Below are positions 5,195 to 26,152 of a stretch of DNA of 26,152 nucleotides, one piece after another (position 1 is the stretch's first letter; each line of letters starts with the position of its first letter). The notes below the pieces were generated by a model, which saw only the letters and a program-made list of their open reading frames with translations, searched no databases and was not told where the DNA came from. Source of the DNA: Polyangiaceae bacterium (GTDB lineage: Bacteria; Myxococcota_A; Polyangia; Polyangiales; Polyangiaceae). The position numbers and the translations under genes were made by a program. The stretch is taken from contig JANRKO010000012.1 in the NCBI GenBank assembly GCA_033763455.1, positions 1 to 26,152 of the forward strand, given 5' to 3'.

Positions 5195-5416
5195 CGTTCG
5201 CGGAAGCGCTCGGCGCGTTACCTCTTGTCACACGCCCGAAACCTCACCGTCGGCGCACGCCAACGTGCCAGGCACGCTTGTTCAGCCGCACGCGTGAACT
5301 CAGTTCTGTATCGCCGAACGGACAGCAATCGAGGTAAACCAAGGGTTGTCTCAGACGATCGGCTATGTTACGGCATGTTAACTCCGGGCCGGGTGCGTGG
5401 AGGGGAGCGCTTGGAA

Positions 5417-8400: not shown

Positions 8401-10324
8401 AGTTGCGGGCAAAGTCACCATTTTGGATGCTCTAGCGCGACTGGAGATGGAACGATGTGGGCTCGCAGCGGATGCCCATTTGGTACTGCTTGGTAAAGAT
8501 TTTTTGCCGACAATAATAGGAGCGGACGCGGCCAATGACCTCAACAACGCAGACACCCCCGCCGATGCACGGAAAAAATGTGAGGACGGTGTTGCCGAGT
8601 TCAGTCGACTTGTAAATAGAGCCCAAAAAGCCCTCCGCGATGCGCAAGAACTGATCCGACAGGAGAAAGAGCTCGTCGCGAGCGGTAGACGCCTGTCGCC
8701 CGATCTTTGCCAGAAGCTCATTGGCGACGGCAAGGCGCTCCCACCTAATTTCCCCAGCGAGACGGCGCCGTTCACCGGTTGTAACCAAATATCCCCCGAG
8801 GACACGATCAACCTGTTCGTTCGCTATTACAAGCGTGAGGTTGGGCGCCTCATTACCGGCCAGGCCACGCTGCTTAAGGATGCCGCGCCAACTTTTCCGG
8901 AGCTGGCGATTCAGTTTGGGCAAGGGCTCCATAAGGAGTCCACCCAGGTTGGTCACTTCGTGTTCGCGATAGGGCCGATCCCAATGGACCTCACGATTGA
9001 CGTCTATATGGAGTTTGGCGTGACGGGGGCTCTCACGTTCTCGTTGACCCCGCAGGCTCTCTTGAATTCGTATTTTAACGGAGAAGCCGAATCCATTGCT
9101 GATGTGGATGCTTCATTCACGCCCAGCGCAAGCTCTGGGGTCACCGTGTTCCTGGGCGCCGGCTTCGATTTTGGTGCAGTGAGCGCCAAGGTGGGTCTCT
9201 CGGGTGACGTGAGTCTGGGTGAGGTCCAGGTTCCGGTTTACGCAGGCGCCGGCCTCAGCGTGCAACCAGAGGTGGATGCACGGCCGCTCCCAAGTGATCT
9301 TACGGATAAGATCAGTTCCGCCGAGCTCATTTTTCCCCCGGGCGTTCCGAAGAAGTATCGGCTGGACGCGCACTATAAATTGGGTGCTTCTGCAATCATC
9401 GACAAGGTTCTGCAAGGGGAGCTCGATGCCAGGTTGCGGATCAAGTTTGCTTTTTTCAGCAAGACTTGGAGTAAGCGCATAACGAAGTTTGATTCGCCAT
9501 TTCACATCGACCCCATCACCCTGATCGGCGACGGGAGTAGCCTCGGGCCCGCAATCGATTTCAGCCCCCTCGCTTCGATTCGGATGCCTCTGCCGTTCGT
9601 AGATTTCGAAGAGCTCCCCACCCCACCCCCACTTCCCCCGCTTCCTCCACCTCCGCCTCCCCCCGGTTCAGGCGGAAGTACGGGCGCTGGCGGAGCCACC
9701 AGCAGTGGCGGAGGCACGAGCAGCGGTGGCGGTTCTGTCAGTACGGGCGGGCGCCCTCCCGTAAGCCTGCAAGTTAGCGGTGACCCTCGTTACGTCAATT
9801 TCAGCACGGCTCAGGTGGGGCAGCTCTTCTACAACGGTTACTGCGAGTGCAGCGCGGCGGGCCAGAGTTGCGGCTCTGGGAGCGACTGCTGCGGAGGTAA
9901 TCTGTGTGTGCTGGATGATAGTCTCGCCACACCTGCAAAATCGTGCGCGGCCTGCGTGAAGCAAACGTCAACTTCTGTGGGTAAAGGGCAGCAATGCACG
10001 CAGACGTCGGAGTGTTGTCAGGGTGATCCTCAGGGGCGGCCCGTGCTTTGTTATCAATTTAGCTTCAGCGGTGGCCCCAAGTATTGCCAAGCCTGTCGCG
10101 GCCAGGATGAACCTATGGCGAATCCGGGTGGCGACGGGTCAGAGTGCTGCGCGGGGCTAACGAAGTTTGTTGGGCCGGGGTCGGAGGCGAATATTCCCGT
10201 GTGCAGTACTCCCAAGAGAGCGATTGGGCAGAGCTGCAATGTGACAGACGATTGCGTGGAGGTTGCAAACGTCTATTGCGATCCGGGCAGCAGGAGGTGC
10301 GCACTTGCGCCAATAATCAGATGA
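5417..10324 (+). CDS. Large multidomain lipoprotein adhesin B2: FGY-N/GQP domain, beta-helix-like region, TSP3 repeats, C-type lectin, Cys-rich region, beta-sheet domain, Pro/Gly linker, Cys-rich tail
   Basis: Lipobox ILGA-C. DTDGDTIDD and DSDGDGTPDCLDACP are TSP3-like. CTL motifs YWFC...TWDEA..LC, WLGG, W..G.P, C..L...G.WSD..C and FVCE lie at ~6950-7340. Start is 5411 (TTG) or 5417 (ATG) by alignment with B1. Confidence 0.88.
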   Translation: MSRVRLLILVVSWAGLILGACSSPPEPSNHVAQGVSLTEGQKKLAPVLECVRPIPQGFAAQFGYENTSGTVQDLVVGPNNGFGLPEPEDDQGQPIRFAPGRQRNVFQVPFVTSLTWTLGQATATASATSAPCGSSLPPPRETFEFHVPQGVALESIVVGQEENLLLQSDSRVLPATAKFFTTAFGTITLQSRVQLGSLVGKGAVTIGRSSVVAGNVRSETPPQRLSGAVVQGTTTVGPVVPNKVSFGLEKRLGGGGYVGVTSAKPVTLPPGSYGNVEVLSNGALTLQAGRYYFGYFRIAATGTVNVLPGGGSTTIMVDHVFKAPGKFTQPEAAKGRVLVLVGSQADEAEAVVGGEFAATLIAPYTDAQVLAKAKVTGGIFSNALLVGTSATINFRPFEWAGLLGHLTDTDGDTIDDRHDACVLNPSKSSPLLCGCAKTEADSDGDGTPDCLDACPRDPNNTVPGTCGCANEKSLQPAGTPCVVEACSASRQEATCNSQGQCGVPNCAPVAGGSCTFKTFRDSLYWFCSGAKTWDEANTLCNAEPGRALAKVNDRIENLWISGVRKQPTWLGGNARTNPDEWNWATNGAPSGVPFWVRGLPVPGRFENWSPGRPQFEACLTLAADGTWSDAPCAEARGFVCEQPLRNLGPSLPPLDKCKFYPGVACGEKGPTLPDESTCVEPAVAQLPNSLAEMRDAAAACFASCPIEGGPGCGACSGFAAPPPIGPGCDPFSTQEIALCRLTSVDPIAKCSLQNPACPPGLRCGIWSECAALDQAFKPRACATDAECGAGQSCGTALGLCIDPGAHEVCDYKDGERCVGICSSSFACGQTDPQCAGNPDGANVLRCSDTLLCSDPAPPVNTDPRTDPQSNLTPQIFTPDTYFPKPVEAPSEYTPAKPPGCGGVGEPACAFEVGTHPWCKYKVAAEEKPPPRAVSDKDPAFGDKKGSSGSLGPISFDFDPNLELTHDVDPLPLGDAKFKVGAQASASAAVGFKLFGVAGKVTILDALARLEMERCGLAADAHLVLLGKDFLPTIIGADAANDLNNADTPADARKKCEDGVAEFSRLVNRAQKALRDAQELIRQEKELVASGRRLSPDLCQKLIGDGKALPPNFPSETAPFTGCNQISPEDTINLFVRYYKREVGRLITGQATLLKDAAPTFPELAIQFGQGLHKESTQVGHFVFAIGPIPMDLTIDVYMEFGVTGALTFSLTPQALLNSYFNGEAESIADVDASFTPSASSGVTVFLGAGFDFGAVSAKVGLSGDVSLGEVQVPVYAGAGLSVQPEVDARPLPSDLTDKISSAELIFPPGVPKKYRLDAHYKLGASAIIDKVLQGELDARLRIKFAFFSKTWSKRITKFDSPFHIDPITLIGDGSSLGPAIDFSPLASIRMPLPFVDFEELPTPPPLPPLPPPPPPPGSGGSTGAGGATSSGGGTSSGGGSVSTGGRPPVSLQVSGDPRYVNFSTAQVGQLFYNGYCECSAAGQSCGSGSDCCGGNLCVLDDSLATPAKSCAACVKQTSTSVGKGQQCTQTSECCQGDPQGRPVLCYQFSFSGGPKYCQACRGQDEPMANPGGDGSECCAGLTKFVGPGSEANIPVCSTPKRAIGQSCNVTDDCVEVANVYCDPGSRRCALAPIIR

Positions 10325-11559
10325 AGTACGCAGAGATCCATGCGCGGAAAGGGAAACCGATGAAAGGCAAATCGGCGGGTCAATCATTGGGGCTAGTATT
10401 CGTGGCAGCGGTGGCAAGCGCCTGTGGCACTAACGCCAGCACCAGCCCCAGTTCATCGTCGCCTGTCGTGCCAGCTGGAGGCAATGGCGGTGCACTGTGG
10501 TCGTTGACAGGCGGTGGCGGGAGCGGTGGTGGTAGTGGTGGTAGTGGTGGTAGTGGTGGCAGCCCCCTCAGCCCGCCTTCTATTGGTGGAAGGGCCGGCA
10601 CGAGCAGCGGTGGAATGGCGGGGGCTCCATCCGAACCGAAGCTTGAACCGCGTGCTCTAGTTGTCACGCTTGAAGGTGGATGCGCATTGGACGCGCTGGG
10701 CGCCATTCAGTGCTGGGGCTATGGTGGGAAGCCATTGGACAACATTCCAAGTGGCAAGTTTTTAGGTCTCGTGAATTACCCTGGGCTCATTTGTGGCACC
10801 CGTGACGATCGAACCTTGCAGTGCTTTTACGAGCCTGGTTACGGCGCGTACTTGTTGCCCACAGGACCGATTGAAGGCGTGTCGGAGGTGGCACTGGGCC
10901 CACACCAAGGTTACACTCTCGACGAGAGTGGGAAAGTGGGGTTGGTTTTTCCACAAAAGGGGGTGTCTCCTCCGGATAGCGAAAGGTTAGCTGCCATTGC
11001 AGCGGGTACGTGGGTTGGCTGCGGGATACGTCGTGTTGATCGGACAATCGTTTGCTGGGGGGATCCAGGGAGCGGGTGTGATCTAGCCATGGGTTACTTC
11101 GACGCTGGTCAACTGGCCGCGCCGGCTGGGGAATTTTCTGAGATTAGCAGTTACAGCTACACTTCGTGTGCCATTCGTTCAACCGGAGAGTTAGCATGTT
11201 GGGGTGCCGGTAAGGGTCCAAATGCAACGAAAGTGCACCCCTGTGATGGGGTCATCATCACCACTGAGGCCCTACCACCGCCCGGAAAGTTCAAGCAGGT
11301 TGCGATGGGATATTCGTACGGCTGCGCGGTAGCTGAGGACGGGCACGTAGAATGTTGGGGAAACGGGACCGCAGACACCTGTGAAGCTGGGTCGGTGGAG
11401 TGCCGACAAGCACTGCCTCCCGCGGGTACTTTCGAGCAAGTCGCTGTTAGCACCTTTCACTCGTGCGCCATGACGGCCAATCGGAAGATAACCTGTTGGG
11501 GCTATCCTGGTCCCAACGGCGGCGATGGTAGGCTTGTGCCGCCGGCGGAGTTTCAATGA
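10321..11559 (+). CDS. RCC1/BLIP-II-like beta-propeller lipoprotein
   Basis: ATGA overlap with the B2 stop (alternative ATG 10360); lipobox VASA-C; five CWG repeats (IQCWG, IVCWG, LACWG, VECWG, ITCWG) with C-A/G-I motifs. Confidence 0.85.
   Translation: MKYAEIHARKGKPMKGKSAGQSLGLVFVAAVASACGTNASTSPSSSSPVVPAGGNGGALWSLTGGGGSGGGSGGSGGSGGSPLSPPSIGGRAGTSSGGMAGAPSEPKLEPRALVVTLEGGCALDALGAIQCWGYGGKPLDNIPSGKFLGLVNYPGLICGTRDDRTLQCFYEPGYGAYLLPTGPIEGVSEVALGPHQGYTLDESGKVGLVFPQKGVSPPDSERLAAIAAGTWVGCGIRRVDRTIVCWGDPGSGCDLAMGYFDAGQLAAPAGEFSEISSYSYTSCAIRSTGELACWGAGKGPNATKVHPCDGVIITTEALPPPGKFKQVAMGYSYGCAVAEDGHVECWGNGTADTCEAGSVECRQALPPAGTFEQVAVSTFHSCAMTANRKITCWGYPGPNGGDGRLVPPAEFQ
10528..10559 (+). repeat. 9-bp tandem repeat (GGTGGTAGT)x3 encoding a GGS linker
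   Basis: Directly visible in the sequence. Confidence 0.8.
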
Positions 11560-12199: not shown

Positions 12200-15100
12200 A
12201 TGAAACCGCTCAACCAGCTCCTGCTTGCTTCTATCGTATTCGGCTGTTCGAACGTCCCTGAGAACGCCGATAAGAAGGCGCAGCCAATTATTAACGGCGA
12301 TATTCTGAGCTCGGCCCAGGTCGCCGATTCTCCGACGGTGCTGTACGGGTCCGCGCAGGACCCGCAGAGAGCCTATGGGTCGGGCATTCGCATAGGCAAG
12401 AATATGGTCTTGACGGCCGGCCACGTCGCGTGGACGGGGGACTTTCGAGTCTTAGTCGATGGTAAGCCGTCTGTTCTGTCGGGCTTGAGCGAAGTTCGGG
12501 TGCGGAGCGGAGGGAAGGTTGGAGGCACCCGAATCAAAGGATTTCCTCGTTTCTATCCGAACTACGGATACGTGTGGCCCGAACCCCGTAACGGTACCGG
12601 CGTGGACCTCGCCCTTGTTTTCGTAGAAGATCCAAGCCAATTGACTGGTGTGCCGATCGATTTGAAGGATCTTGGTTGCACGAAGCCCACTAAGCTTCTG
12701 TGTGAGTCATCTATTCGGCATCACGTCGTGCCGGGGCCCGCTAATGGTAACAACCAGGCATCCCCGGAGTTCGGAGTCTTGAACCGTGCCATCTTCCGGA
12801 CGGACTCAAGCCCGGTAGCCACACCGTGGCTACTTCCTACGGTCATCAATCGACCGATTTTTGGCATCTTTGGCGAGTACCAAACATTGTTTGAGGGAGA
12901 CTCTGGCGCAGGATGTCTCGATGCCGAGTCCGACAGGTTGGCTGGGATCGTGAGCAATGCGGGAAACAACGACTCCACCACAGACGTGAGAATGAGTACT
13001 GGTGACGTCGTCTGGCTTGGGTACGGCGATATCTGCCAGTGGATACACGACGCAAGCGACCCCAGCACGGTGGCAATCCAGCAGGCACACCTCGACGGGG
13101 ACCGGCAGAAGGACACACTCCTACTGTCCCACACAGGGGGAGACGATTTCTCGTTCCGCATCCGGAGGACGAGGCTGGCCGAGCAGACTTTCTCTGTAAA
13201 AATCAAACTGCCCGGAACACGGAACATTCACGCCGTAGCAATGGGAAACTACAATGGGAAGGGGCAGAGCCTTGCCTTGTTGGACAATGGATCCATCATG
13301 TTCGCTGGGCTTGAAGACCCCAAGCAAAGCTCTATTGTCCCACCGGTATCCTCGTTGGTAGGTTACCGGCCGCCGAACAACTACTACCAAATTTGGAAAG
13401 CCGACGTGAACGGTGATCGGTTCGACGACCTTGTAGCCGGACGTCGAGACAGCAGAGTGGACGTCTTTTTAGGCAGCGCGGATGGCCTCGCTTACTCACC
13501 AAGCGTATCAGATTTCACGTTTACGTTGCTTCGCCTGGACGGAGACACATTACCCGATCTCCTTTGGACAAAGGACGGCGACATCAACGTTGCTACTAGC
13601 CTGGGAGGGACTTGCGCCGACATCACGCTTTGCCCACGCCATTCCAAGGTCACCATCCCCGGTGGCATTTCTTTGCAGATAACGAAGCCTGGGCGCTTCC
13701 GGCGGTTTTCCGGAGATGATGCTGGGGTGGAAGACATCGCCTCCATCGGAGATGGCTACGTCATCTGGTGCAAGTCAACGCTGGCTGGGGTTGAATGTGT
13801 CTCGTCCTTGGATGGTCCCCCCACGCGTAAAGCGACCGACCTTGATGTTACTGATTTCGATCGCGACGGACTCGACGACATCCGAGTTTCATACGCGAAC
13901 GGAGAGCAAAAAACCTTTTTGTCATCCGACACCGGCTTCAAGCCGAGGGCGGGGATCGGAAAGCCGAAGATTAAGGTCATACCAGCCGACCTCGACGCCG
14001 ATGGGCGGTCCGACGCCGTCGCGCTCGACAATAACAACGGGCGCGTTTCGCTACAGATTCGCTTGAATGGATCGACGCCGTTTGAGCTTCCCGAGTTTCT
14101 CACTGCCATCCCTTACGTGGCGCCCGTTGCACTGCTCGCCGGAAACTTCAACGGTGATGCGAATGCTGCAACGGCCGCCTCCGCGACCGCCCAAGTCGCT
14201 CCGGGTATCCCGATCGAGGACATAGCAATCTTGAGCGGCGGCAAGGTTTATGCGCTTATCTCGGACGGCCACGGCTCCCTTGTCCCCAATTCTCTCGATG
14301 GCCCCGGAAATGCTACTTCGCTTCGAGTCAATGACGTCAACGGCGACGGCTTCGACGACCTCGAAGCCACCCAATCCGACGGTTCGGTCACTGTATACAC
14401 CGGCGTGTCTGATCCAACTCAGGGTCTCAGCCCACTGAGCACCAACTTCACCGGCCTTCCCACCGCCGAAAGCAACGACGGCAAGATGCTGGTGTTGAGT
14501 GGTCAGGGTGCTGACACAGTCGGATCGAGCGAAGCTCGACTCAAGATAACGGTGGGCCCCGAAGAAACCGCGGCCCTCGATCGACTGGTTGTGCAGGTAT
14601 TCGACGGCGACAATGGCGGCCTTCACCAGTTTGACAAGGAAACAAACGTCCTAAAAACCTGTTACCAATTAAGCGCCGATCCCTGCGGGGATGGAGGCAG
14701 TGGCAACTGTAACGGTGGTACGCGCCCCCGGGTGCTGCTCAAGACTGTGAGCAGCGATGAGCTGCACGATGACGTTTGGGATGCCATCTTCGACGGCCCA
14801 CACCCCGTATCCGCGTCGCTCACAGGTAATGGGCAGGCCCCCTTCACGTACGAGCTTCACGTGTTTATGTCGGAGACCTGCAACACGTTGCCCGACCCAA
14901 CCAAGACGCTGAAGGTTGCCACAGCGGATGCTTTTAAGGTGCGTGCCAACGGTATGGTGAGCCACCCGCTCGGCGAATTTTCGTTTATTGGGTCCGATTC
15001 TGATGGCCCAGACGGCGTCCCCGACCTGCCCTACATGCGAGATACTGAATACAATGGCGTCTTCGAACTGCCGATTGCCGTTGGCCCAGGAGCGACGGAA

Positions 15101-17020
15101 ATCCAGTTGAAGGAAACGGATGCTGACTCGCTCTCGGACTCCACCCCCGGTGTATCGTTGGGTGCGACGCAAGCCATTCAATATCGATTGATCAAGCCCA
15201 CGGGGGAAGCAGCGGCGGTAGTTGGTGCGGAGGACACGGCACCCGCAGATGTCGTGCCGAATCCGTCCGGCAACAATGACGGTATCCAGGATAAAGACGT
15301 CGAAACCAGGATCCACCAGATCGTTGGAAGCGGAGAAGGTATTTGGACTTGGCGTTGGGAGGGCGTTAAGGCGTCCAATGCGGTACACGTTTTCGCCCCA
15401 TTTGGCTCACCGACAACCCATGAGATCCTGGGAGCTCGCCGTCACCGACCGACTGCGACTACAGTTCAGTTACCAGAGTATTGGAGCGGGAACTCAGCTG
15501 AACTCGCCAAGGCACTTCCCCTGGAATTGGGCGAAACCGGTGGGAGTATCAAGATCAGCACGCTGGGAGACGCGCAGAACATTTTTGCTAACGCGAGTGG
15601 TGCCCTGTTTGGCGAGCTTGAGCGCCAGCTACTGGTAGCCAAGCTGAATCAAGCGAGGAGCCAGGCTCAGGGCGAAACGATCGGAGGTGCCCTAGTGTAC
15701 GGAACCACCATTCCAGTGCGTACGGTGCTTGCTGCGGCGGACGCAACGTTGGCGGGTCGAGCCACGCTTCCGGGCCTCACCTCGGAAAGGCTGGTTCAGC
15801 TGTTGAGTTCAGTGAATCTTGGTGAAATCACCTATCGCCAACCCGGAGTGCCATTCCCCGAGGAGCCGATGGCGGATGATGATGGGGATGGGCTGGCCAA
15901 CATGAAGGACAATTGCCCGAGCGTTGCGAACGCAGATCAAGCTGATTCGAACGGCGATCAGGTGGGGGACGCTTGCAACGTTACGGTTACTGGAAGTTGC
16001 GTCCTGGAGCGTCCGGATGGTCAGCTGAGTGCGTTTTTTGGGTACAACAATCCGCTGTCGTTCCGCAGTATTCCTGTAGGCACGCACAACCAAGTTGGGG
16101 GTGAGCCCACGGGGCTCGGCTTGCTCGATTGGGGCCAGCCGACGACGTTCGAAGGCGGCATAGTTGCTGGGGCCTTCACCCGACCGTTGACTGCCGGCGA
16201 GGTGGTTTCGTGGAGCGTGGAAGGTCAAACGGCTACGGCGAGCCTGGGCGCATCACCTGCGTGTGGAGGACGGGAGCTCACCGATGTTGCGTTCGCACGC
16301 AATGTGGCGGTGTTTGGTGCCGAGTCGTTAACTCTGGGCGACCGCGTGAGCGTGGTCGCGAGCGGGGACATGGCGACCCTCGTGAGCGGGGGAGACATGG
16401 TGTTGGGTGCCAACGTGAGCGTCGGGAACGTCATGGCGAGAGGCCGTGCGAACGTTGGGGCAGGCAGCGCCGTGCTTGGGTCTGCGGTCACGGGCCAAGC
16501 ACTCACTCTGGGCGGAGGTGCCGTGGTAGCTGGGGCGGACGTGCGGAGTGTATTGCCACAACACGCGTTTGGCTGGCGAGTCGCCTTCAACGCGACAACG
16601 CTTGGAGATGTCGATGTTCAAGCTGGGCAGAGCCGAGTGCTTCCGCCTGGCAACTACGGCAAGGTGAACGTCCGGCCGGGCGCGCGCCTCAGCTTGCAGA
16701 TCGGAAATTACCAGTTTGGAAGTCTGTTGGTCGACAAGCAAGGCACGCTTGCCGCAGGCGACGGAGCAGTGACGGTGCACGTCGCCACGAGCCTCGACCA
16801 CCGCGGCTCCACTTCGGTGCAGGCTCACTCCGATCTAACGCTCGGCTACCTTGGCTCGGAGCCGGCAAAGGTCAACGCTTCGTTCACTGGTGCCGTTGTC
16901 GTACCGAATGCGGAATTGGCGCTAGGTGCCACCCCGAATGCGGTGTATCGAGGTTCATTTTTTGCGAAGAGCCTCACGGTGGGCCCGGGTACTTTGCTCG
17001 AATTCGCGCGCCCCAGGTGA
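12200..17020 (+). CDS. Lipoprotein: S1 (trypsin-fold) serine protease + FG-GAP repeats + TSP3 + FGY-N/GQP domain + C-terminal beta-helix-like domain
   Basis: Lipobox VFG-C; AQP|IING activation site; VLTAGH, DLALV and GDSGAG triad motifs; repeated D.NGD..DDL motifs; DDDGDGLANMKDNCPSVANADQADSNGDQVGDAC (TSP3). Confidence 0.9.
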   Translation: MKPLNQLLLASIVFGCSNVPENADKKAQPIINGDILSSAQVADSPTVLYGSAQDPQRAYGSGIRIGKNMVLTAGHVAWTGDFRVLVDGKPSVLSGLSEVRVRSGGKVGGTRIKGFPRFYPNYGYVWPEPRNGTGVDLALVFVEDPSQLTGVPIDLKDLGCTKPTKLLCESSIRHHVVPGPANGNNQASPEFGVLNRAIFRTDSSPVATPWLLPTVINRPIFGIFGEYQTLFEGDSGAGCLDAESDRLAGIVSNAGNNDSTTDVRMSTGDVVWLGYGDICQWIHDASDPSTVAIQQAHLDGDRQKDTLLLSHTGGDDFSFRIRRTRLAEQTFSVKIKLPGTRNIHAVAMGNYNGKGQSLALLDNGSIMFAGLEDPKQSSIVPPVSSLVGYRPPNNYYQIWKADVNGDRFDDLVAGRRDSRVDVFLGSADGLAYSPSVSDFTFTLLRLDGDTLPDLLWTKDGDINVATSLGGTCADITLCPRHSKVTIPGGISLQITKPGRFRRFSGDDAGVEDIASIGDGYVIWCKSTLAGVECVSSLDGPPTRKATDLDVTDFDRDGLDDIRVSYANGEQKTFLSSDTGFKPRAGIGKPKIKVIPADLDADGRSDAVALDNNNGRVSLQIRLNGSTPFELPEFLTAIPYVAPVALLAGNFNGDANAATAASATAQVAPGIPIEDIAILSGGKVYALISDGHGSLVPNSLDGPGNATSLRVNDVNGDGFDDLEATQSDGSVTVYTGVSDPTQGLSPLSTNFTGLPTAESNDGKMLVLSGQGADTVGSSEARLKITVGPEETAALDRLVVQVFDGDNGGLHQFDKETNVLKTCYQLSADPCGDGGSGNCNGGTRPRVLLKTVSSDELHDDVWDAIFDGPHPVSASLTGNGQAPFTYELHVFMSETCNTLPDPTKTLKVATADAFKVRANGMVSHPLGEFSFIGSDSDGPDGVPDLPYMRDTEYNGVFELPIAVGPGATEIQLKETDADSLSDSTPGVSLGATQAIQYRLIKPTGEAAAVVGAEDTAPADVVPNPSGNNDGIQDKDVETRIHQIVGSGEGIWTWRWEGVKASNAVHVFAPFGSPTTHEILGARRHRPTATTVQLPEYWSGNSAELAKALPLELGETGGSIKISTLGDAQNIFANASGALFGELERQLLVAKLNQARSQAQGETIGGALVYGTTIPVRTVLAAADATLAGRATLPGLTSERLVQLLSSVNLGEITYRQPGVPFPEEPMADDDGDGLANMKDNCPSVANADQADSNGDQVGDACNVTVTGSCVLERPDGQLSAFFGYNNPLSFRSIPVGTHNQVGGEPTGLGLLDWGQPTTFEGGIVAGAFTRPLTAGEVVSWSVEGQTATASLGASPACGGRELTDVAFARNVAVFGAESLTLGDRVSVVASGDMATLVSGGDMVLGANVSVGNVMARGRANVGAGSAVLGSAVTGQALTLGGGAVVAGADVRSVLPQHAFGWRVAFNATTLGDVDVQAGQSRVLPPGNYGKVNVRPGARLSLQIGNYQFGSLLVDKQGTLAAGDGAVTVHVATSLDHRGSTSVQAHSDLTLGYLGSEPAKVNASFTGAVVVPNAELALGATPNAVYRGSFFAKSLTVGPGTLLEFARPR

Positions 17021-18297
17021 GCCCGATGTTTGGCTCAGTGGCCTCCTCGTGCGCACGTCCGTTGAGGTTGGGGAGCGTCGCCTTAGCTCTAGGCTTCTTC
17101 TGCCTCGCCTGTGGACCGAGCCACGGCATCGACGATTTGGATCCGGGTGCAGCGAACCTCGCTGGAGCGAATGCGGGCCCAACAAATCAGCCAACGTGTG
17201 AGCCACTCCCAGACGGGACGGAGCAGCTGGTGAAGGGGGTGCGCATCTTTGAATTAGCTGTATTTCAGGGAGTGAAAGTCTCTCTCGTGAATCAGATGAT
17301 GGCGGTGGAACCGCGCAACGCAGAAGTCATTGCGAACCGGCCCGCCCTCATTCGAGCTTACGTGGCTCCGGAGCCCGGGTGGGTGCCCAGAATTGTGCGA
17401 GCCAGGCTCACACTGCAAAACACCGATGCGGGCGGTCAGGTTTCGGAAATGGTATTTCCTCGCACCGTTAGCTTAAACGCGGATTCAACCGATCGAGATC
17501 TCGATTCAACCTACAACTTCGAAGTTCCTAAAGAGGCCATCACCGAAAATACGCGTTATTCGCTAGGCTTCTTTGAAACGGAGGCATGCCCGCCAGTTTC
17601 CGCCGGCACCGTGGCTCGTCTTCCGGCTGAGGGCTTCTCGGAGCTCCGCGCCCGCCGGGTCGGCGGGATCCGCGTGCAGCTGGTTCCTTTGCGTTTCACA
17701 GGGGCCGCCGAGCCGCTGCTTCCTGATACCACCGACGCTCAAGTCAACATCTACCGGGACGCGCTGTTTAAGTCCTACCCGGTGGATGCGGTGGATGTGC
17801 GCATTCGAAGTGAACCAGTAGATACATCTGCAACCACCATGACAGCGGTGCTTGATCAACTAGGCGAGCTCAAAGCTGGAGAGAATGCCCCGGCGGATCT
17901 CACGTACTTTGGGCTGGTGCGGTTCACCGAACGCTTGGAAGATTATTGTTCGCCGAGTTGCGTGCTCGGCGGAGCCTTTGACGGCGACCCAAACAATCCA
18001 ACGGCCGGAGTGGCAGTCGGTGTCGGGTATTCAGGGGAAGCTTCCGCTGGCACCTTCGTTCATGAGTTAGGACACGTTTACGGGCGGCCGCACACTCCGT
18101 GTGGTGTTGAGGGGGACCCGGGGTATCCCTACCGTGGAGGGCTTATCGGCAGTTGGGGGTACGATCTTGTCAACCATGAGCTCATCGATCCCATGACGCA
18201 TGTTGATTTTATGGGCTATTGCTCTCCCGTTTGGGTGAGCGACTACACCTTCGCGCATCTGCAAGCGTATCTGGCGCGGTTGAACGGGAACCGCTAG
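17017..18297 (+). CDS. Metzincin zinc metalloprotease lipoprotein (M66-like)
   Basis: GTGA overlap with the upstream stop (alternative ATG 17026); lipobox CLA-C; HELGHVYGRPH (HExxHxxGxxH) at 18061-18093; DFMGYC Met-turn; WGYD. Confidence 0.87.
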   Translation: MSPMFGSVASSCARPLRLGSVALALGFFCLACGPSHGIDDLDPGAANLAGANAGPTNQPTCEPLPDGTEQLVKGVRIFELAVFQGVKVSLVNQMMAVEPRNAEVIANRPALIRAYVAPEPGWVPRIVRARLTLQNTDAGGQVSEMVFPRTVSLNADSTDRDLDSTYNFEVPKEAITENTRYSLGFFETEACPPVSAGTVARLPAEGFSELRARRVGGIRVQLVPLRFTGAAEPLLPDTTDAQVNIYRDALFKSYPVDAVDVRIRSEPVDTSATTMTAVLDQLGELKAGENAPADLTYFGLVRFTERLEDYCSPSCVLGGAFDGDPNNPTAGVAVGVGYSGEASAGTFVHELGHVYGRPHTPCGVEGDPGYPYRGGLIGSWGYDLVNHELIDPMTHVDFMGYCSPVWVSDYTFAHLQAYLARLNGNR

Positions 18298-19978: not shown

Positions 19979-21757
19979 TCAGAGAGCTTCAAACCAGATC
20001 TTGATTTTCTGCGCCATGAGCTTGCGCCTGTGTTCGAGAAAGTCGTCGTACGCGGGAATTTCGCCATTGAGAAGCGATTCCGGCAGGCAACTCATGCGGA
20101 GGTTCGCGCACAGTTCTTCTCTGTTCGTGATGCCGCCATATTTCTTGGCACCGCCGTTACACTGTTGGGCCAGTTCAGTGAAGTAGATTTCGGGGGCGCT
20201 GTCGCCTATGGCGATGTTGATCTCGCTTTGAGCAAGAACGAAGTTGGCGATCTGGTTGTAGCGACCGCGAGCGAGCCCCTGCTTCTTGAGGTAGTTGCGC
20301 GGGTAAACATGGTGTACGTCACTCCGGTTCATCATCAGGTCCTGAACGGTGATGTCGCGGGAAAGGAAACCTTTGTCGCCAAGTTTCACTTGCGCCGCCT
20401 TGTAGGCGAGGAAATAAGGACTCTGGGCGGAGGAGGTGTCCATCAACTGAGGGAGCATTCCAGTCCAAAAACTCGCTGGCAGTTCGTTTTCAATGACCGC
20501 ATCGCAGTATGCAATCAAGCCGCGTGCCTCAACCTGCCGAATATCGAAGTCGAACGCGGTCTCCGGACTGCCGGTGTAGCGCCCACGCAGGATGGACATG
20601 GCATACCAACGGCGTACGAGCCGTTCGAGGTCGGCGGCTGGAACGCCTTCAGCGCGTCCCCTCAGGTAAAGAATATAGGCGAAATTTACCGCGTTTTTGC
20701 CACCAATCAGGTCGTTCGTTACGAAGCCCGCGGAGCGAACGATCATGGTGAAGCGCTCGAAATGGGTCTTGTTGATGAAGCGCAGGATGCCCTGTTTCAG
20801 CTTGGCGAACGAGGCCTCCGCGATGACGTCTTCATATTGGCGGGTCTCGAAGTTACGTCCCGAAAGTAGCGCCACGAGGTCTGCCAACTTTCCGCGCCCG
20901 AACTCGGCGGTGAAGGCCACGCGAAGCATGTCGGTGTAGGTCGGATCGTAGATGTCGTCGTTCACATCCTTGAGCCAGCGCATCTGCGGGAAAAATTCTG
21001 AGGCAGCAAAAGGCTTGTCGCCCTTTTCGATGAGCCCAAGAAAGTCTGGCGCGACGGCGAGATGACAGAAGTAGTCGATTGCCTTGCGCAACATATTCCC
21101 GCCATGGGTTTCGTTGGCCGCGATTTTCGACATGGCAAAATCGGCCTGCGACAGCTCAGCACCGGCGGAATTCACGCGGATAAAAATCTCCGTGACGGTC
21201 TCAATGTCGAGGTCCTCGGCGAGTTCGATCAGGCCGACGTGGTTGTTAATGATCTTGCCGAGCTTTTGCAGCACCTTGCCAACATGTTTGCGGTCGGCAC
21301 TGGAGTTCTTAGAAACATACTCCTCGGTCAACTCGATCAGATCAGCTTCAGGCGAGAAGACAGCAGCCACATCCTCGATCCATGCGACGTTGGCAACCTC
21401 GAACTTCTCCGTCAAGGGATGGAAGGCGATCCTAACACGGATGGTCTCGTAGTCCTTGGTCAGGACCTCGCGCCCGAGCAGCCCAGCCATCAATGCGGTG
21501 ACGCGCTGCTGGCCATCGATGAGAATCCGTTTTCCGGCCGAGGGAGCTCCATCCTTGAGCTTCACGGTCGGGTTTCGCCACGCGATTAGGTAGCCGACCG
21601 GATAGCCCTGGTAGAGCGAATCGAGCAGGTTGCGAACTTTCGCCGGCTCCCAAACGAAGGGCCGTTGGATCTCAGGGATGGCAATCTCGCCTGACTTCAC
21701 CCAAGTGAGCAAGGTTTCGATGGGATGTGGGGTTACGGAGTAGCGTTGAGTGGACAT
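19979..21757 (-). CDS. GmrSD-family type IV (modification-dependent) restriction endonuclease, DUF262 + DUF1524/HNH fusion
   Basis: [16 protein letters not shown] and FIRVN (DUF262 motifs); DVHHVYP...NQIANF (DUF1524 HNH-like). Confidence 0.9.
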
Positions 21758-22493: not shown

Positions 22494-22700
22494 ATGAGCC
22501 AAGCCAGCACCAAGCAGCAACCCAACGTGTGGCACGCACCCAAGAACGCGCGGTCCGAAGCGCTGAAGGGTGTACGGCTCGTGGCGCCTTCTCCTGAGGT
22601 GGCCGCCGCGCTTGAGGCTCGAGTCGATCATGCGCGCGCACGCGCACGCGCCTATGAAACCCCGGTCACTGACGAAACGCTGCGGCAAAAGGTGTCGTGA
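22494..22700 (+). CDS. 68-aa protein translationally coupled to the downstream peptidase-like gene
   Basis: Lies after the predicted promoter; its stop overlaps the next start as GTGA (22697-22700). Confidence 0.65.
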   Translation: MSQASTKQQPNVWHAPKNARSEALKGVRLVAPSPEVAAALEARVDHARARARAYETPVTDETLRQKVS

Positions 22701-24265
22701 CGGCGTTCGGGGGGAACGAGGCGCAATCACTCAAGCTCGAGCCGTTCGACGTCGCGTCGTTCCCGAGCGGCGTACGCGGAGCGTCGCAGGTGCTGTACCT
22801 GCGGTGTTACCTCGCTGACCTCAACGCGCAGTCGGTCGTTGAAGAACCCAACTACTTCGACCGCGACTACCTCGCCGAGTTCGCTGCCTTCTATTCCACG
22901 AGCAGCAAGGGTTACCGCAACATCTGCCGGCGCCTGCACCTGTTCGATGCACCACTGCCGGAGTTGAGACAAACGTTCGCTGCCGCGCTTGGTGGTATCG
23001 AAGAGGCGGTCACTCGGCTGAATCAGAGCTATCTCGGCTTCATCGTTGTGAGGCCGCTCCCCATGACGCCGCTTGGGCGTACGGTGCTCAAACTCTACCC
23101 GGAGCGAAGCCCCAATTTCCCCCGGGAAACGCGACCTGCGCGCGTCTACCGAGCCAACCTTCTCGGCCTTCCCCTCGAAGTCCGAGGTCTAGCCTGGCAG
23201 CAACAAGATCAAGGTGTCGGGGCGTGCGCGACCGTGGCGCTTTGGACAATGTTCCATTCGTCAGCATTGGACGAGCACCACGCGGTGCCGACCACCGTCG
23301 AAGTCACCCGCGCCGCACACTCGCGCTGGCCACTCAGTCGCCGCGTCTTCCCTTCCGACGGCCTGAACGTTCACCAGCTGTGCGACGCCATCAAGGCGCA
23401 GGGGTTGCTTCCAACCGTGCTCGAGGGCGACGAGGCAGTGCGCACACCAGCGGGAGTCCTGCAGACCTTCGGCCGCGCCCGCTTCGCTGCTTCGTGCGCC
23501 GCGCTAGTTCGGTCCGGGTACCCGGTGCTGGTGGCCGCTCGCGTGCTCGGAGACCTCGGTGGTGAGGGTCATGCCGTTACCATTGTGGGATATCGTCCTG
23601 CCGCATCGCCCAGCGCACCGAGTGGCGAGGCCGTCGAGGAAGACGGGTCGATAGAGCACTTGTACGTGCACGACGACAATCTCGGTCCCAGTGTTCGCTT
23701 CACGATTGACGAAGCCGAAGTCATTACTGGTGGTCCTACGGTTACGGTGCTGCGCGCGGCCCCTCCGCCGCCGCTGAACGGTCGCGCGGCGCTGGCTGAT
23801 CCGACGGCCTCATACGTCAAGCTCGTGCCGACGAGCCTCGTCGCCGCGCTTCCCAATGAGATCCGCATCAGCTCCGATTATCTGAACAGCTTCGCCGCCA
23901 CCGTCGCGGACACTATCGCTGGATATCTTGATGGCCTCTCGATCGGGTTGCCGGGTGTTAGCTTCTCGGCGTCCTTCATGCGTGCCAGCGCTTATTGGGG
24001 ACCCGAGCTCGGCCGTTGCTTGGACGGCCATCGCCTTCGGAAAGCACGACTCGCGCTGATGAACCGCGTACGCCCAATGAGCCTTCACATTGGAGTCGTA
24101 CGCATCGGCCTCCAAGGTGCGCCGCTCATCGACTTGCTGCTCGACACAACAGACAGCGAACTGTCCCCACAAATCTTCGCTCACGTCATGTTTCAAGGAT
24201 TTAGCCCAACTTGGCTACCGGGTGGCCTGGGTGCGGATTGGGGGACACCTGTTGTGGCCTGTTAA
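22697..24265 (+). CDS. Papain-fold/C39-like cysteine peptidase-family protein with uncharacterised N-terminal domain
   Basis: QQQDQGVGAC (oxyanion Gln and Cys), GYPVLV, GHAVTIVGY (His) and LYVHDD (Asp); N-domain YFDRDYL...CRRLHLF...YLGFIVVRP.P..LGRT. Confidence 0.78.
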   Translation: MTAFGGNEAQSLKLEPFDVASFPSGVRGASQVLYLRCYLADLNAQSVVEEPNYFDRDYLAEFAAFYSTSSKGYRNICRRLHLFDAPLPELRQTFAAALGGIEEAVTRLNQSYLGFIVVRPLPMTPLGRTVLKLYPERSPNFPRETRPARVYRANLLGLPLEVRGLAWQQQDQGVGACATVALWTMFHSSALDEHHAVPTTVEVTRAAHSRWPLSRRVFPSDGLNVHQLCDAIKAQGLLPTVLEGDEAVRTPAGVLQTFGRARFAASCAALVRSGYPVLVAARVLGDLGGEGHAVTIVGYRPAASPSAPSGEAVEEDGSIEHLYVHDDNLGPSVRFTIDEAEVITGGPTVTVLRAAPPPPLNGRAALADPTASYVKLVPTSLVAALPNEIRISSDYLNSFAATVADTIAGYLDGLSIGLPGVSFSASFMRASAYWGPELGRCLDGHRLRKARLALMNRVRPMSLHIGVVRIGLQGAPLIDLLLDTTDSELSPQIFAHVMFQGFSPTWLPGGLGADWGTPVVAC

Positions 24266-24323
24266 CGACAAGCAAGGCAATTCGAGTGGCGTTAGCCCGC
24301 GTTTTCGGGAACGAACCCGCCGC

Positions 24324-24352
24324 TCTGAGTTGCAGCTGTGCGTCTACAAACC
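24324..24352 (+). repeat. 29-bp direct repeat, copy 2
   Basis: TCTGAGTTGCAGCTGTGCGTCTACAAACC; both copies are preceded by GCGTTTT(G)CGGGA. Confidence 0.85.
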
Positions 24353-24733
24353 TACAGCGTTCGCCAGAAAACTAAAGGCCGCGCGAGCAGGAAGCCGAAG
24401 CGACCTGCAAGGCGGCCTTGCAAGGGGGCGGACTGAAGTCCTACGTGCAGCCTAGCGATGCCTGCCCACCCGTCAAGTGCCACGTAGTCACCGAGCTTCG
24501 CCAAGTTTGCAAGCGCGTGTGGTTTGGTTTGGGAACATATCGGAACAGCGCGAACGCGATTTCTCGAGCCCAGAGATGTCATGGGGTGGCTCGCGACCTG
24601 AAAAGTAGTGGTCACCTTTCGGCTATAGAAAGCCCAAGGGTATTCGGCCCGATTGACGCATCCGCAGCGCCGGTGAGGGCCGTTTGGACCCGTGCTGCTC
24701 GAAACTTCGGAAGAGGCAACGAAGGGCACGCTT

Positions 24734-24760
24734 GGGGGACAGTAATTAAGGCTGTCCCCC
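24734..24760. other. Perfect 9-bp hairpin GGGGGACAG-TAATTAAGG-CTGTCCCCC in the IS left end
   Basis: Directly visible inverted repeat; no U-tract follows. Confidence 0.7.
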
Positions 24761-24832
24761 TGGCAGCGAGGTCACTCAAACTGAGGCCTCAATCAAAACA
24801 CGCGCTCTATGGCGCAGCACAAGGAGACAGCC

Positions 24833-25855
24833 ATGCAACATGTTGCTATCGATCTCGGCAAGAAGGAATCCCAAATCTGTGTTCGTGCTCCGGACGGCCA
24901 AATTCTCGACGAACGCAAGATCCCCACGGTAAGCCTCGAACGATTCCTGCAACAGCAACCCTTCAGTCGGGTCATCCTCGAAACCTGTTCGGAGTCTTTC
25001 TCTGTGGCGGACAAGGCGCTCGACAGCAAGCACGAGGTCCGCGTTGTGCCGGCTACGCTGGTTCGCAGCCTGGGCGTGGGTGCTCGCGGCATCAAGACCG
25101 ATCGGCGCGACGCACAGGTTCTCAGCGAAGTTTCGTGCCGCATCGATTTGCCCTCCGTTCATGTTCCCAGTCATGTGGCGCGGGAACGCCGCGCCTTGTG
25201 CCAGATGCGCGAAACCCTCATCGCTTCCTGCGTCAGCCTCACCAACTGTGTGCGCGGATGGGCTCGAACGCAGCTGCTCAAGATACCTCCTTGCGGCACC
25301 GCTACCTTTCCCCGCCGAGTTCGCGAAAATGCCCTAAAAACTCACCACGGCCTTGCAAACTATGTCGAACGGCTCCTGCTTGCGATCGAAGCGCTCAACG
25401 AACAAATCAAGCTAGCCGACAAGGAGCTCGAGAAGCTTGCAGAGCAGGATCCTATTTGCCAGCGACTCATGTCCGTACCTGGTGTTGGACCCGTCACCAG
25501 CGTGCGCTTCATGGCCGCCCTCGACGATCGTTCCCGCTTTCCCAGCGCACACGCCGTTCAGGCCTATCTCGGCCTTACTCCCGGCGAAAACTCCAGCTCC
25601 GAACGCAAGCAGCGCACCGGCATCACGAAGGCAGGCCCGGCCGCCATGCGTCGAGCTTTGGTGCAAGCTGCATGGAACGTTCGACGCTTCAGACCCAACG
25701 ATCCGATCTCGCTCTGGGCACAGGAGATCGAGAAGCGTCGAGGAAAGTTCATTGCGACCGTCGCCGTGGCCCGCAAGCTCGCAGGGATCCTGTACGCGAT
25801 GTGGCGGGATGGCTCTCGTTACGAACCTGGCCACGCTCAACGCAAGGGATCCTAG
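24833..25855 (+). CDS. IS110-family DEDD transposase/recombinase
   Basis: SD AAGGAG; HVAIDLGK, VILET and KTDRRDA (DEDD); SVPGVG and AYLGLTP..NSS (C-terminal Ser domain); AVARKLA. Confidence 0.95.
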   Translation: MQHVAIDLGKKESQICVRAPDGQILDERKIPTVSLERFLQQQPFSRVILETCSESFSVADKALDSKHEVRVVPATLVRSLGVGARGIKTDRRDAQVLSEVSCRIDLPSVHVPSHVARERRALCQMRETLIASCVSLTNCVRGWARTQLLKIPPCGTATFPRRVRENALKTHHGLANYVERLLLAIEALNEQIKLADKELEKLAEQDPICQRLMSVPGVGPVTSVRFMAALDDRSRFPSAHAVQAYLGLTPGENSSSERKQRTGITKAGPAAMRRALVQAAWNVRRFRPNDPISLWAQEIEKRRGKFIATVAVARKLAGILYAMWRDGSRYEPGHAQRKGS

Positions 25856-26136
25856 CCCCCTCATACCAATCTTTGGCGGTCTTCATGGCTGTCCAGAGGC
25901 CAAACATTGGCTGTCCAGAGGCGGCAAGCGCGACCTCTCCGCTCCCGGCGTCCGGCTTATGCCGGTTACGACCTCGTCACGGCGATTGCGCTCCGCCAAC
26001 GGATTTACACCTATGCGCCACCACGAGCGCGGATAGTCGATTGCGACAGCCCGTTTTTTTGCCTCTGTCTAGCCCAAGACCTGCCTCATAACGACCAACA
26101 CCCGATCGTAGGGAGAACTTTGTCTTTGACTGTTGT
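25856..26136 (+). ncRNA. Candidate bridge/seekRNA in the IS 3' non-coding end (limits approximate)
   Basis: ~280-nt non-coding end, as in IS1111 elements; ATAGTCGAT (26033-26041) matches the predicted circle junction; stem GCGCTC/GAGCGC; duplicated CGATTGCG motif. Confidence 0.6.
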
Positions 26137-26152
26137 GCCACCCCATAGTCGA

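Follow-up and report, generated by a model that had tools for sequence, protein, structure and literature searches.

In the closest described systems, the insertion sequences of the IS1111 group, a seekRNA is located 3' of the transposase gene (tnp) and carries a match to the top strand of the target 5' of a match to the bottom strand, with the two overlapping, as the published description puts it (PMC11187229). In a second account, a bridge RNA is predicted at the right end of 93% of IS1111 elements, often with the donor nucleotides in a multiloop (PMC11208160). The inverted repeats of the group are given as usually 11 to 13 bp in the former (PMC11187229) and as 7 to 17 bp in the latter (PMC11208160), and the terminal extensions as measuring 7 bp at the left end and 3 bp at the right (PMC11187229).

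At the end of the window, by which we mean the whole stretch of 26,152 nucleotides that was analysed, lies an intact insertion sequence of this group, 1,576 bp in length (Table 1). We put a probability of roughly 0.85 on the reading that it is a complete IS1111 element whose DEDD/serine recombinase would work with an RNA from its right end that holds two guide-bearing regions. Judged by its sequence, it is an ordinary member of the known seekRNA/bridge RNA class of IS1111 elements. The original prediction of an IS1111-type element with an RNA-type end and target guides in its 3' non-coding end is borne out by covariation among relatives and by a conserved fold; its suggestion of a possible new programmable recombinase was overstated, because the NCBIfam name exists and right-end RNAs of IS1111 elements (bridge RNAs and seekRNAs) have been published.

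Table 1. Features of the IS1111-group element and its flanks, in window coordinates.
Feature	Position	Strand	Evidence
Left flank (left target) of the window copy, GAGCCCAG	24566..24573	+	Junction alignment
Whole IS1111-group element	24574..26149	+	Homology to 7 relatives; empty sites in L004/L005; 7+3 rule as published (PMC11187229)
Left terminal extension AGATGTC, 7 bp	24574..24580	+	Junction alignment
Left subterminal inverted repeat ATGGGGTGGC	24581..24590	+	Inverted-repeat pair, 100% complementary
5' UTR with long-range stem, 24750-24762 paired to 24820-24832	24750..24832	+	Inverted repeat, consensus fold
Transposase/recombinase gene, 340 aa	24833..25855	+	Pfam, NCBIfam, ISCro4/IS621 matches, family alignment
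Predicted bridge/seekRNA gene, ~145 nt, 3' of the transposase gene	25909..26053	+	Alignment of 8 homologues, consensus fold
Right target guide, target loop 5' strand, ACCTCTCCG	25933..25941	+	Complementary to top strand CG+GAGAGG(T)
Left target guide TCACGG + invariant tail CG-AT, target loop 3' strand	25977..25986	+	Homology to relatives
Tentative right donor guide TTACACCTA, donor multiloop 5' strand	26005..26013	+	Weak match to left end
Hairpin separating the donor strands, TGCGC / GCGCG	26014..26031	+	Helix 7: 97.5% of cells paired, 1 compensatory
Left donor guide ATAGT-CG-AT	26033..26041	+	Single copy in each of 8/8 homologues
TTGAC(T), -35-like box	26126..26131	+	Fixed 6 nt from right repeat; TTGAC in 7/8 homologues
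Right subterminal inverted repeat GCCACCCCAT	26137..26146	+	Inverted-repeat pair, 100% complementary
Right terminal extension AGT, 3 bp, final element bases	26147..26149	+	Junction alignment, relatives' empty sites
Right flank, first 3 bases CGA	26150..26152	+	CG fits guides; A where G predicted

The encoded protein belongs to the IS110 family. It has an N-terminal DEDD RuvC-like and a C-terminal Tnp domain, matches Pfam PF02371 (6.1e-25) and PF01548 (7.4e-13), and reaches 247.8 bits (cut-off 140) with NCBIfam NF033542, named "IS110 family RNA-guided transposase". Among solved transposases, ISCro4 (6.2e-13) and IS621 (1e-11) were matched by sequence, and the protein is full length when aligned with 13 family members. 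The acidic residues D7, E50, D90, and D93 align with those of ISCro4, as does S255, within GLTPGENSSS (residues 247 to 256), with the serine of the ISCro4 "ESG". The conserved serine of the G--P----SG motif is thus in place, followed by S rather than G in all 13 clade members that cover the position. In the leader, the long-range stem covers the Shine-Dalgarno sequence AAGGAGA, and the consensus of 11 homologous leaders contains 14 pairs, 4 with compensatory change. We infer that this stem probably serves in translational masking.

Empty sites of two relatives (L004 and L005), together with repeat continuity in a third (L003), set the boundaries of the element, which alignment then transferred to the window; almost all relatives used in the DNA comparison come from Myxococcota assemblies. 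For both L004 and L005, the joined flanks occur uninterrupted elsewhere (12/12 in each case, with ~30 nt of shared context for L004 and 4 further nt for L005), and joining the flanks of L003 restores an array of CGTGGCA heptads. No duplicated core was seen at the empty sites of L004 and L005, and target duplication is absent. The dinucleotide AG opens the element in 11/11 left junctions, and in all of these AG plus 5 bp precede the left repeat; the right repeat is followed by AGT or ACT in 8/8. As read from the empty sites of the two relatives, the AG at the left is the element's and the CG at the right is the target's. The right boundary dinucleotide is CG at about 6/8 junctions, the exceptions being TG, CA, and CC. 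These limits put the start of the element at 24574 rather than 24575 and its end at 26149 rather than at the last base of the window, as had been proposed, and the right flank is cut off by the contig end after 3 bases.

The element has the properties expected of the IS1111 group. Its subterminal inverted repeats, already recognised in the original prediction, are 10 bp long and perfectly complementary (24581-24590 and 26137-26146), and the extensions outside them, as transferred from the relatives, are asymmetric, with 7 bp at the left end against 3 bp at the right, without target duplication. The 10-bp spacer between the repeats that had been proposed for the joined ends is accordingly right as a length (7 + 3). 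The non-coding region 3' of tnp is the longer of the two by a small margin, at 294 nt versus 259 nt upstream.

The 3' non-coding region contains the predicted RNA. Its predicted layout is an outer stem (25909-25912 with 26048-26051) around a stem-loop that would bind the target (25913-26004) and a donor-binding multiloop. The 8 homologues share a consensus fold with 36 pairs, 13 of them compensatory, a structure derived from the same 8 related sequences in which the pairs were counted. In this fold 88.9% of cells are paired, versus 34.7 to 44.9% when the partners are slid, and none of 500 shuffles did as well. The window RNA folded singly gains modestly over shuffles (z = -2.09; 5/200 as good). 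Within the consensus, 25987-25990 pairs with 25929-25932 and 26014-26018 with 26027-26031; a GCGCTC/GAGCGC stem that had been noted in this region is absent from it and is not conserved. As proposed earlier, a covariance model of the non-coding end could be built, the 8 homologous RNAs giving a conserved, covarying fold. When run over the window and 13 loci (86,044 bases), this model found no sequences at E < 0.01 other than the 8 RNAs on which it was trained, and four additional matches (E 0.23 to 0.67) were taken as chance. A scan of positions 24300 to 26152 against Rfam 15 (E up to 10) gave a sole, chance-level match, with an E value of 2.8 and 18.8 bits, where the gathering score is 73.

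Amid these stems, both target-loop strands follow the insertion sites of the relatives. The right guide strand matches the right junction in 7/7 relatives over 8, 8, 8, 7, 6, 5, and 5 nt, and wrong pairings of guide and junction give runs of 2 to 5 nt only. For the left guide, the 6-mer matches the left flank over 5, 5, 3, 6, 5, and 3 contiguous nt in the 6/6 relatives having both RNA and left flank, versus 0 to 3 contiguous nt for wrong pairs in an 8 x 11 cross table. Among 5,040 permutations, the true assignment of guides to flanks alone ranks first, for left and right guides alike. In the relatives, the top-strand complement is situated 5' of the top-strand match, with an overlap at the insertion point. 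The right target guide varies with the target dinucleotide, and the left target and left donor guides read CG in 8/8; the T or A that closes the tail is the same as base four of the left end in 7/7. The sister motif that the original prediction had singled out, CACGGCGAT-TGCG, is present at 25978-25990. Because of its homology to the guides of the relatives, the motif at 25977-25986 is taken to be a target guide, and the proposed covariation of insertion sites with it held in 6/6 relatives; what did not hold was the link to the window's own left flank, which agrees with it at chance level.

The donor-binding region could be assigned in part. The sequence ATAGTCGAT is found once in the 26,152-base window, as an exact copy at 26033-26041 followed by TGCG, just as had been reported; with up to 1 mismatch it occurs at 5 sites, versus 1.85 expected. 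Its first 8 bases equal the right junction at 26145-26152 (8/8), and it agrees with the predicted abutted junction ATAGT|AGAT at 8/9 positions. Because it is conserved in 8/8 homologues and covaries with the right end (a G>C change in L001 and L002), we consider it the left donor guide, although the covariation events are few, since the G>C change and the T/A change in the tail probably represent one event each. Both left guides carry C where the first base of the element is A (11/11 left junctions), which leaves the donor guide mismatched at one position of the abutted junction. The right donor guide is more tentative. Its reverse complement, AG-G-TGT, weakly resembles AG-A-TGT at the left end, with an inconsistent register in L003, L005, and L007; compared with the in-silico junction, the longest common substrings were 3 to 5 nt, again in inconsistent register.

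Two other accounts of the right end have to be weighed against this reading. The original prediction joined the ends at GA, with a GA(T) core common to donor and target, a circle junction of AGTCGATGTC, and a guide at 25978-25986 that matches its own left flank. In its favour, ATAGTCGAT equals the right end plus GA and the T of the left end if the ends are joined in this way, both left guides finish in CGAT, and GA follows AGTC or ACTT in the window and in L001. After the repeat and AGTC, ACTC, or ACTT, however, the eight right junctions read GA, GA, GC, GT, AC, GT, CC, and GC, so that the GA at 26151-26152 is not conserved (2/8). The empty sites of L004 and L005 and the heptad continuity of L003 assign the dinucleotide after AGT to the target and the left AG to the element, and C as first base of the junction cannot give the A found at all 11 left junctions. 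The predicted junction is one base off that expected by the 7+3 rule for abutted ends, and the variable part of the guide matches the window flank at chance level. We regard a GA(T) core as very improbable. Just as improbable is the view that the right-end motifs work as a DNA or mRNA 3' element (a copy of the transposase-binding end, a terminator, or a stability structure) rather than as guides. It would be in keeping with ATAGTCGA as a simple direct repeat of the terminus and with the run of seven T residues 3' of the outer stem in the window (26054-26060), but the T run is not kept in the 7 relatives, the stems carry compensatory changes, and published IS1111 elements are described as producing such an RNA (PMC11187229). 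Moreover, two hypervariable loop strands amid conserved stems track both flanks locus by locus, behaviour not accounted for by a protein site or a terminator.

The window copy itself presents a different problem. From its guides, the cognate site is predicted to be TCACGG|CGGAGAGG; the actual site is GAGCCCAG|CGA. The left flank shows 1 contiguous match to its own left guide and 3/6 identities, which is in the range of mismatched pairs, and the one right-target base visible past CG is A where G was predicted. The 6/9 match to the left flank reported earlier comes down to three constant bases (GAT) plus 3/6 variable ones, 1 of them contiguous from the junction. Since the left flank matches the guide no better than chance, we conclude that the copy is not in its cognate site, and the mismatch makes placement off-target, or by the RNA of a co-resident relative, the most likely explanation. 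By analogy with the published requirement for cognate flanks, a copy with non-cognate flanks may be unable to excise using its own RNA. A search of the window for this predicted site that allowed up to 3 mismatches gave 5 places, versus 3.9 expected, so none is a credible cognate site. Alternatively, the copy was inserted at its cognate site, and its target loop was later replaced (a natural reprogramming) or its flank rearranged. We find this possible but distinctly the less probable history. A natural swap of target-matching bases between close relatives is described for ISEc11/ISXne4 (PMC11187229), and an identical transposase is present on 4 contigs, so that recombination between copies could occur. 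Against it, when the 374 bases on the left side of the element and the other 24.5 kb were compared by blastn with the element and the ends of its relatives, nothing rose above chance, and the 24.5 kb upstream thus hold neither a remnant nor a second copy; the window does not tell these histories apart.

Returning to the RNA-guided reading, the recombinase would be expected to act with RNA from the right end (~25909-26053), whose outer stem would hold a target-binding internal loop and a donor-binding multiloop as the two guide-bearing regions. The 3' strand of the target loop (25977-25984) would pair with the bottom strand to the left, and the target guides would overlap on the dinucleotide directly 3' of the insertion point. 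In the donor multiloop, the 3' strand (26033-26041) would read the right end and the 5' strand (26005-26013) probably the left end. The expected product of excision is a circle in which the two ends abut (AGT|AGATGTC), and insertion would take place 5' of a CG without target duplication. The TTGAC(T) box near the right repeat is a candidate for one half of a promoter across the circle junction, by analogy with the published description of the group (PMC11187229); a sigma-70 scan of the linear DNA, in which the junction does not exist, found no promoter-like match. Throughout this Myxococcota clade, the A that begins the element never equals the C at the same position in the left guides and the target, and the outcome at the two junctions is one-sided in the same way, with the element's AG at the left and the target's dinucleotide, mostly CG, at the right. 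It is conceivable, if doubtful, that this fixed A/C difference is a natural strand marker; if true, it would show that no core is shared and that crossover occurs at a single point 5' of the dinucleotide, or else that only the configuration of one strand is passed on, as has been proposed for an IS110 element in a 2025 preprint. The strand-exchange geometry would then be unlike that of IS621. The first-base A would also complete the TA that opens a -10-like hexamer, only with abutted ends, which would tie expression to circle formation. In an outgroup (35% identical), where subterminal repeats were sought as a test of how general the A/C difference is, no convincing pair was found.

RNA-guided recombinases of this class are under development as genome-insertion tools. 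With the window element, a clearly bounded case whose guide rules can be read becomes available from an environmental clade that is extensive and has not been studied (its proteins fall into at least 120 clusters at an identity of 70% or higher), and a search of the literature by title or abstract found no earlier description of a Myxococcota clade of IS1111 elements or bridge RNAs. The guide/flank mismatch of the window copy makes insertion off-target or guided in trans open to test in a specific case, and the fixed A/C difference could inform how IS1111-type strand exchange differs from that of IS621.

Among plasmids, relatives are remote. In tblastn, at least 5,000 plasmid records were matched, all below 60% protein identity among the matches listed, which is too distant for RNA alignment, and the best plasmid-borne relative among those matches has 35.3% identity. 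ISAzs32 and ISMno22, annotated as IS1111 group in RefSeq plasmids, align over 97 to 99% of the protein at 33% identity. The former belongs to a set of six elements for which Durrant et al. inspected the bridge RNA loops (PMC11208160); ISPa11, ISAzs32, and IS1111 are not mentioned in the four readable supplementary files (of six) of that paper. A blastn search with the non-coding right end of the element against 72,556 plasmid records gave no match.

As they are described, the seekRNA IS1111 elements ISEc11, ISKpn4, ISPst6, and ISPa11 (Siddiquee et al. 2024, PMC11187229) resemble the window element in their subterminal repeats, 7/3 extensions, lack of target duplication, transposase of ~340 aa, and RNA 3' of tnp with the top-strand complement 5' and an overlap in the target, a likeness of guides at the level of the text description. 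The predicted window RNA, at ~145 nt with a target stem-loop of ~92 nt, fits the published ranges of 145 to 170 and 70 to 100 nt (PMC11187229). The window element differs from these elements in its repeat of 10 bp, compared with the usual 11 to 13 (PMC11187229), in having nearly as much non-coding sequence upstream as downstream, and in its clade motif, GL-P----SS in 13/13 members versus S(T)G. With IS621/ISCro4 (Durrant et al. 2024, PMC11208160; Hiraizumi et al. 2024, PMC11208158, as described there), it shares the DEDD RuvC-like and serine Tnp domains and one RNA with target- and donor-binding regions, in which left (bottom-strand) and right (top-strand) guides overlap on a dinucleotide. The predicted RNA, however, is in the right end instead of the left, the order of strands within each loop is reversed, and the donor strands are in a multiloop. 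Finally, in IS621 the two boundaries have one and the same CT core, whereas the window clade has no single core dinucleotide identical in donor and target and at both boundaries, but AG at the left (11/11) and mostly CG at the right.

The only long open reading frame between 24300 and 26152 encodes a 340-aa transposase that begins MQHVAIDLG and carries the Pfam domains PF01548 (DEDD_Tnp_IS110) and PF02371 (Transposase_20). The protein scores 247.8 bits against the NCBIfam model NF033542, "IS110 family RNA-guided transposase" (cut-off, 140), and by sequence matches the solved transposases ISCro4 (6.2e-13) and IS621 (1e-11). SS replaces SG after the motif serine in all 13 clade members. Residues 167 to 263 also score 41.9 bits against the NCBIfam model of the RNA-guided endonuclease of TIGR-Tas, short of its cut-off of 100, and in a structure search residues 170 to 273 match solved TasH/HNH nuclease chains (4.7e-06); both matches reflect a domain common to the two RNA-guided systems. 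The gene's leader (24750-24832) contains a long-range stem of GGCTGTCCCCCTG with CAAGGAGACAGCC, and the Shine-Dalgarno sequence is buried there, just 5' of the ATG at 24833; a set of 11 homologous leaders shows the stem again, its strands altered in a compensatory way, and the inner GCGC hairpin is kept too.

A protein scan of genome contigs recovered 13 loci with relatives of the window element (L001 to L013). Eleven lie in Myxococcota assemblies, one of them labeled only "delta proteobacterium"; L010 is on a Solirubrobacterales contig and L011 on a Woeseiaceae contig. Protein identity to the window transposase was 55 to 77% in 12 loci and 35% in L011, and none of the 13 proteins was identical to it. 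The right end was present in 7 loci (L001 to L005, L007, and L012), which with the window gave 8 RNAs, all related; a recognizable left end in 10 loci (L001 to L009 and L013) gave, with the window, 11 left junctions. L010 (no recognizable repeat in the sequence examined), L011 (outgroup), and L012 (5' part missing) stood outside the junction counts. A protein search also returned at least 120 clusters at 70 to 100% identity, mostly on contigs of 1.3 to 2 kb, and the window's identical transposase on 4 contigs among the matches listed, which looks like the picture that a multicopy repeat gives in assemblies. The window itself ends at 26152, 3 bases beyond the element's last base, as would be expected if the assembly broke at such a repeat.

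All 11 left junctions read AG, A(T/A), and three bases before the repeat (the 10-bp subterminal inverted repeat, perfect in the window), and in all 8 right junctions the repeat is followed by AGT or ACT. This is the layout of a 7-bp left and a 3-bp right extension described for IS1111 elements in the introduction of PMC11187229. When the flanks of L004 are joined, an uninterrupted copy is found ~800 bp away (12/12, with ~30 nt of context in common); those of L005 have a second, inverted copy (12/12 plus four further bases), and those of L003, once joined, rebuild a CGTGGCA heptad array. Because of these joined flanks, we assign the left AG to the element and the dinucleotide after AGT to the target, with no duplication. 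The insertions at the repeats of L003 to L005 also imply that several of these elements target short repeated sequences. L005 adjoins a GGCGTTCTT tandem array.

By alignment, the window element is 1,576 bp long and the CGA at 26150-26152 is flank. The original prediction had placed a GA core at both ends; GA comes after AGTC or ACTT in just 2 of the 8 right junctions, and a duplicated shared core is excluded by the empty sites. The circle junction proposed with that core differs by one base from AGT/AGATGTC, which abutted ends predict. The T expected right after the window is likewise unsupported; L001, the sole relative with GA there, goes on with G.

From GGCTGTCC through GACAGCC the alignment of the 8 right ends is good, and they share a consensus fold, with 13 of 36 consensus pairs changed on both sides. 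Cells were paired in 88.9% of cases versus 34.7 to 44.9% with partners slid by 1 to 3 columns, and 0 of 500 shuffles reached the observed pairing values for this fold, which was predicted from those same 8 sequences. The window RNA folded alone gave a z of -2.09. Against the conserved stems, the internal loop has two hypervariable strands. Two conserved helices compete with the GCGCTC/GAGCGC stem suggested earlier, and the bases equivalent to that stem are noncomplementary in the relatives. Near the RNA, an exact 15-nt direct repeat, TGGCTGTCCAGAGGC, occurs at 25886-25900 and 25908-25922, 22 nt apart; the downstream copy forms the 5' strand of the outer stems, and the upstream one, diverged in L001 and L002, may belong to an upstream hairpin (CTTTGGC...GCCAAA) or to a longer precursor. 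A run of seven T residues directly 3' of the outer stem (26054-26060) is found in the window only and is unconserved in the 7 relatives.

Features of the window element, its predicted RNA, and related target sites
Feature	Position	Strand	Remark
Window element	24574-26149		by alignment
Transposase ORF	24833-25855		340 aa
Inverted repeat	24581-24590 / 26137-26146		10 bp, perfect
Predicted RNA gene	about 25909-26053		3' noncoding end of element
Outer stem	25909-12 with 26048-51		consensus fold, 8 RNAs
Second stem	25913-16 with 26001-04		closes long stem-loop with large internal loop and variable inner hairpin
Conserved hairpin in multiloop	26014-31		consensus fold, 8 RNAs
Left target guide	25977-25986		internal loop, 3' strand
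Right target guide	25933-25941		internal loop, 5' strand
Left donor guide	26033-26041		ATAGTCGAT
Candidate right donor guide	26005-26013
Unoccupied target, L004	2795-2806	+	near element
Unoccupied target, L005	2400-2411	-	near element
Target-related sites, L003	65-76 and 1510-1521		inserted in CGTGGCA heptad array

For the left target guide, we compared the 6 to 8 bases 5' of the invariant CGA(T/A) with the left flank. Contiguous agreement from the junction was 5, 5, 3, 6, 5, and 3 bases in L001 to L005 and L007 (in L001 the 5 bases are the whole flank present on the contig), versus 0 to 3 in wrong pairs. The right guide, as reverse complement, agreed with the right junction over 8, 8, 8, 7, 6, 5, and 5 bases (L001 to L005, L007, and L012; wrong pairs, 2 to 5), starting at the dinucleotide right after AGT/ACT in 5 of 7. 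In both tables the true assignment of guide to flank was the single best among 5,040 permutations, scoring 28 versus at most 12 and 47 versus at most 27 for alternatives in which every locus was mispaired. The dinucleotide where the target guides overlap is CG, except for TG in L001, CA in L004, and CC in L007; the right guides of L004 and L007 read CC there. The target-guide tail ends in T in six RNAs and in A in L003 and L005; in each of the 7 loci with both known, this final base is also the left end's fourth. The guide order and overlap in the relatives follow the layout given for IS1111 seekRNAs in PMC11187229, with the complement of the top strand first, the match to the bottom strand second, and the two overlapping in the target. 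At L002 (3001-3917) the transposase gene is broken, with ~30 residues missing and the frame lost after residue 206; its guides still agree with both flanks. This is a decayed copy remaining at its cognate site.

Each of the 8 RNAs has a single copy of the donor guide, ATA(G/C)TCGA(T/C), which covaries with the right end, ATACT accompanying ACT (L001 and L002) and ATAGT accompanying AGT (the other six). The window's 9-mer was correctly picked out: it is the sole exact copy in the window, and its first eight bases are the window's last eight. It agrees 8/8 with the right junction (26145-52) and 8/9 with the predicted abutted junction. The reverse complement of the candidate right donor guide, AG-G-TGT, resembles the left end, AG-A-TGT, with register shifts in L003, L005, and L007, and we leave this strand unplaced. 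Donor nucleotides lie in the multiloop, as in many IS1111 orthologues of Durrant et al. (PMC11208160).

At the position where every left junction (11/11) shows A as the first base of the element, both left guides read C (8/8 each); the target has C there in 7 of the 8 right junctions, L001 having T. The geometry of IS621, an identical CT core at both boundaries with top strands cut downstream of it, fails to reproduce this pattern. A single crossover 5' of the dinucleotide would do so, as would inheritance of one strand only, a mechanism put forward for an IS110 element in the abstract of a preprint. Seven of the 8 right ends carry TTGAC (26126-26131), always 6 nt from the repeat. Abutted ends (26149/24574) would put a -10-like hexamer, T/AGATG, 17 nt 3' of it, and the TA of this hexamer would be completed by the element's first A in the circle only; no sigma-70 match was found in linear DNA.

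The expectation that insertion sites track the target guide held for the relatives (L001 to L005 and L007) and failed for the window's own left flank. The sister motif is present where it had been placed, and the 6/9 flank match claimed for it includes three bases of constant GAT; the variable part agrees at 3/6, 1 contiguous, like wrong pairs. The window guides predict TCACGG/CG-GAGAGG(T), the actual site is GAGCCCAG/CG-A, and agreement is limited to CG. Neither the predicted cognate site nor a remnant of another element copy was found elsewhere in the window. Most likely, the window copy inserted off-target or under the RNA of a coresident relative. Such an RNA could accept the window element's ends, since five of the 8 RNAs have an identical donor guide. 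Cognate insertion followed by later replacement of the target loop or the flank is a less likely course. The copy may now be stranded because movement, according to the discussion of PMC11187229, needs a donor flanked by the correct target.

Other genes in the window included a GmrSD-type (DUF262, PF03235) restriction-endonuclease-like ORF ~3 kb upstream of the element (19979-21757, minus strand) and a 522-aa ORF that adjoins the element (22697-24265, plus strand) and has no Pfam match. Very long ORFs (5225-10324, 12200-17020, and 16129-18297) carry C-type lectin, FG-GAP, and peptidase M66 domains, and 10144-11559 is an RCC1-repeat ORF. Two pairs overlap in different frames (12200-17020 with 16129-18297 and 5225-10324 with 10144-11559), which may be frameshifts or wrong start choices.

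We found no earlier description in the literature of Myxococcota elements of the IS1111/bridge-RNA type. The kind of system is already published, and the NCBI protein family name already says RNA-guided. The window element has the tested characters of the IS110 family and the IS1111 group, and the relatives show those of the seekRNA arrangement. What the element lacks is the one core common to donor and target that marks the IS621 type. Plasmid-borne relatives share at most 35% identity among the matches listed. Along with this distance and the SS motif, the clade's small peculiarities are the 10-bp length of the repeat and an upstream noncoding region that nearly equals the downstream one in length.
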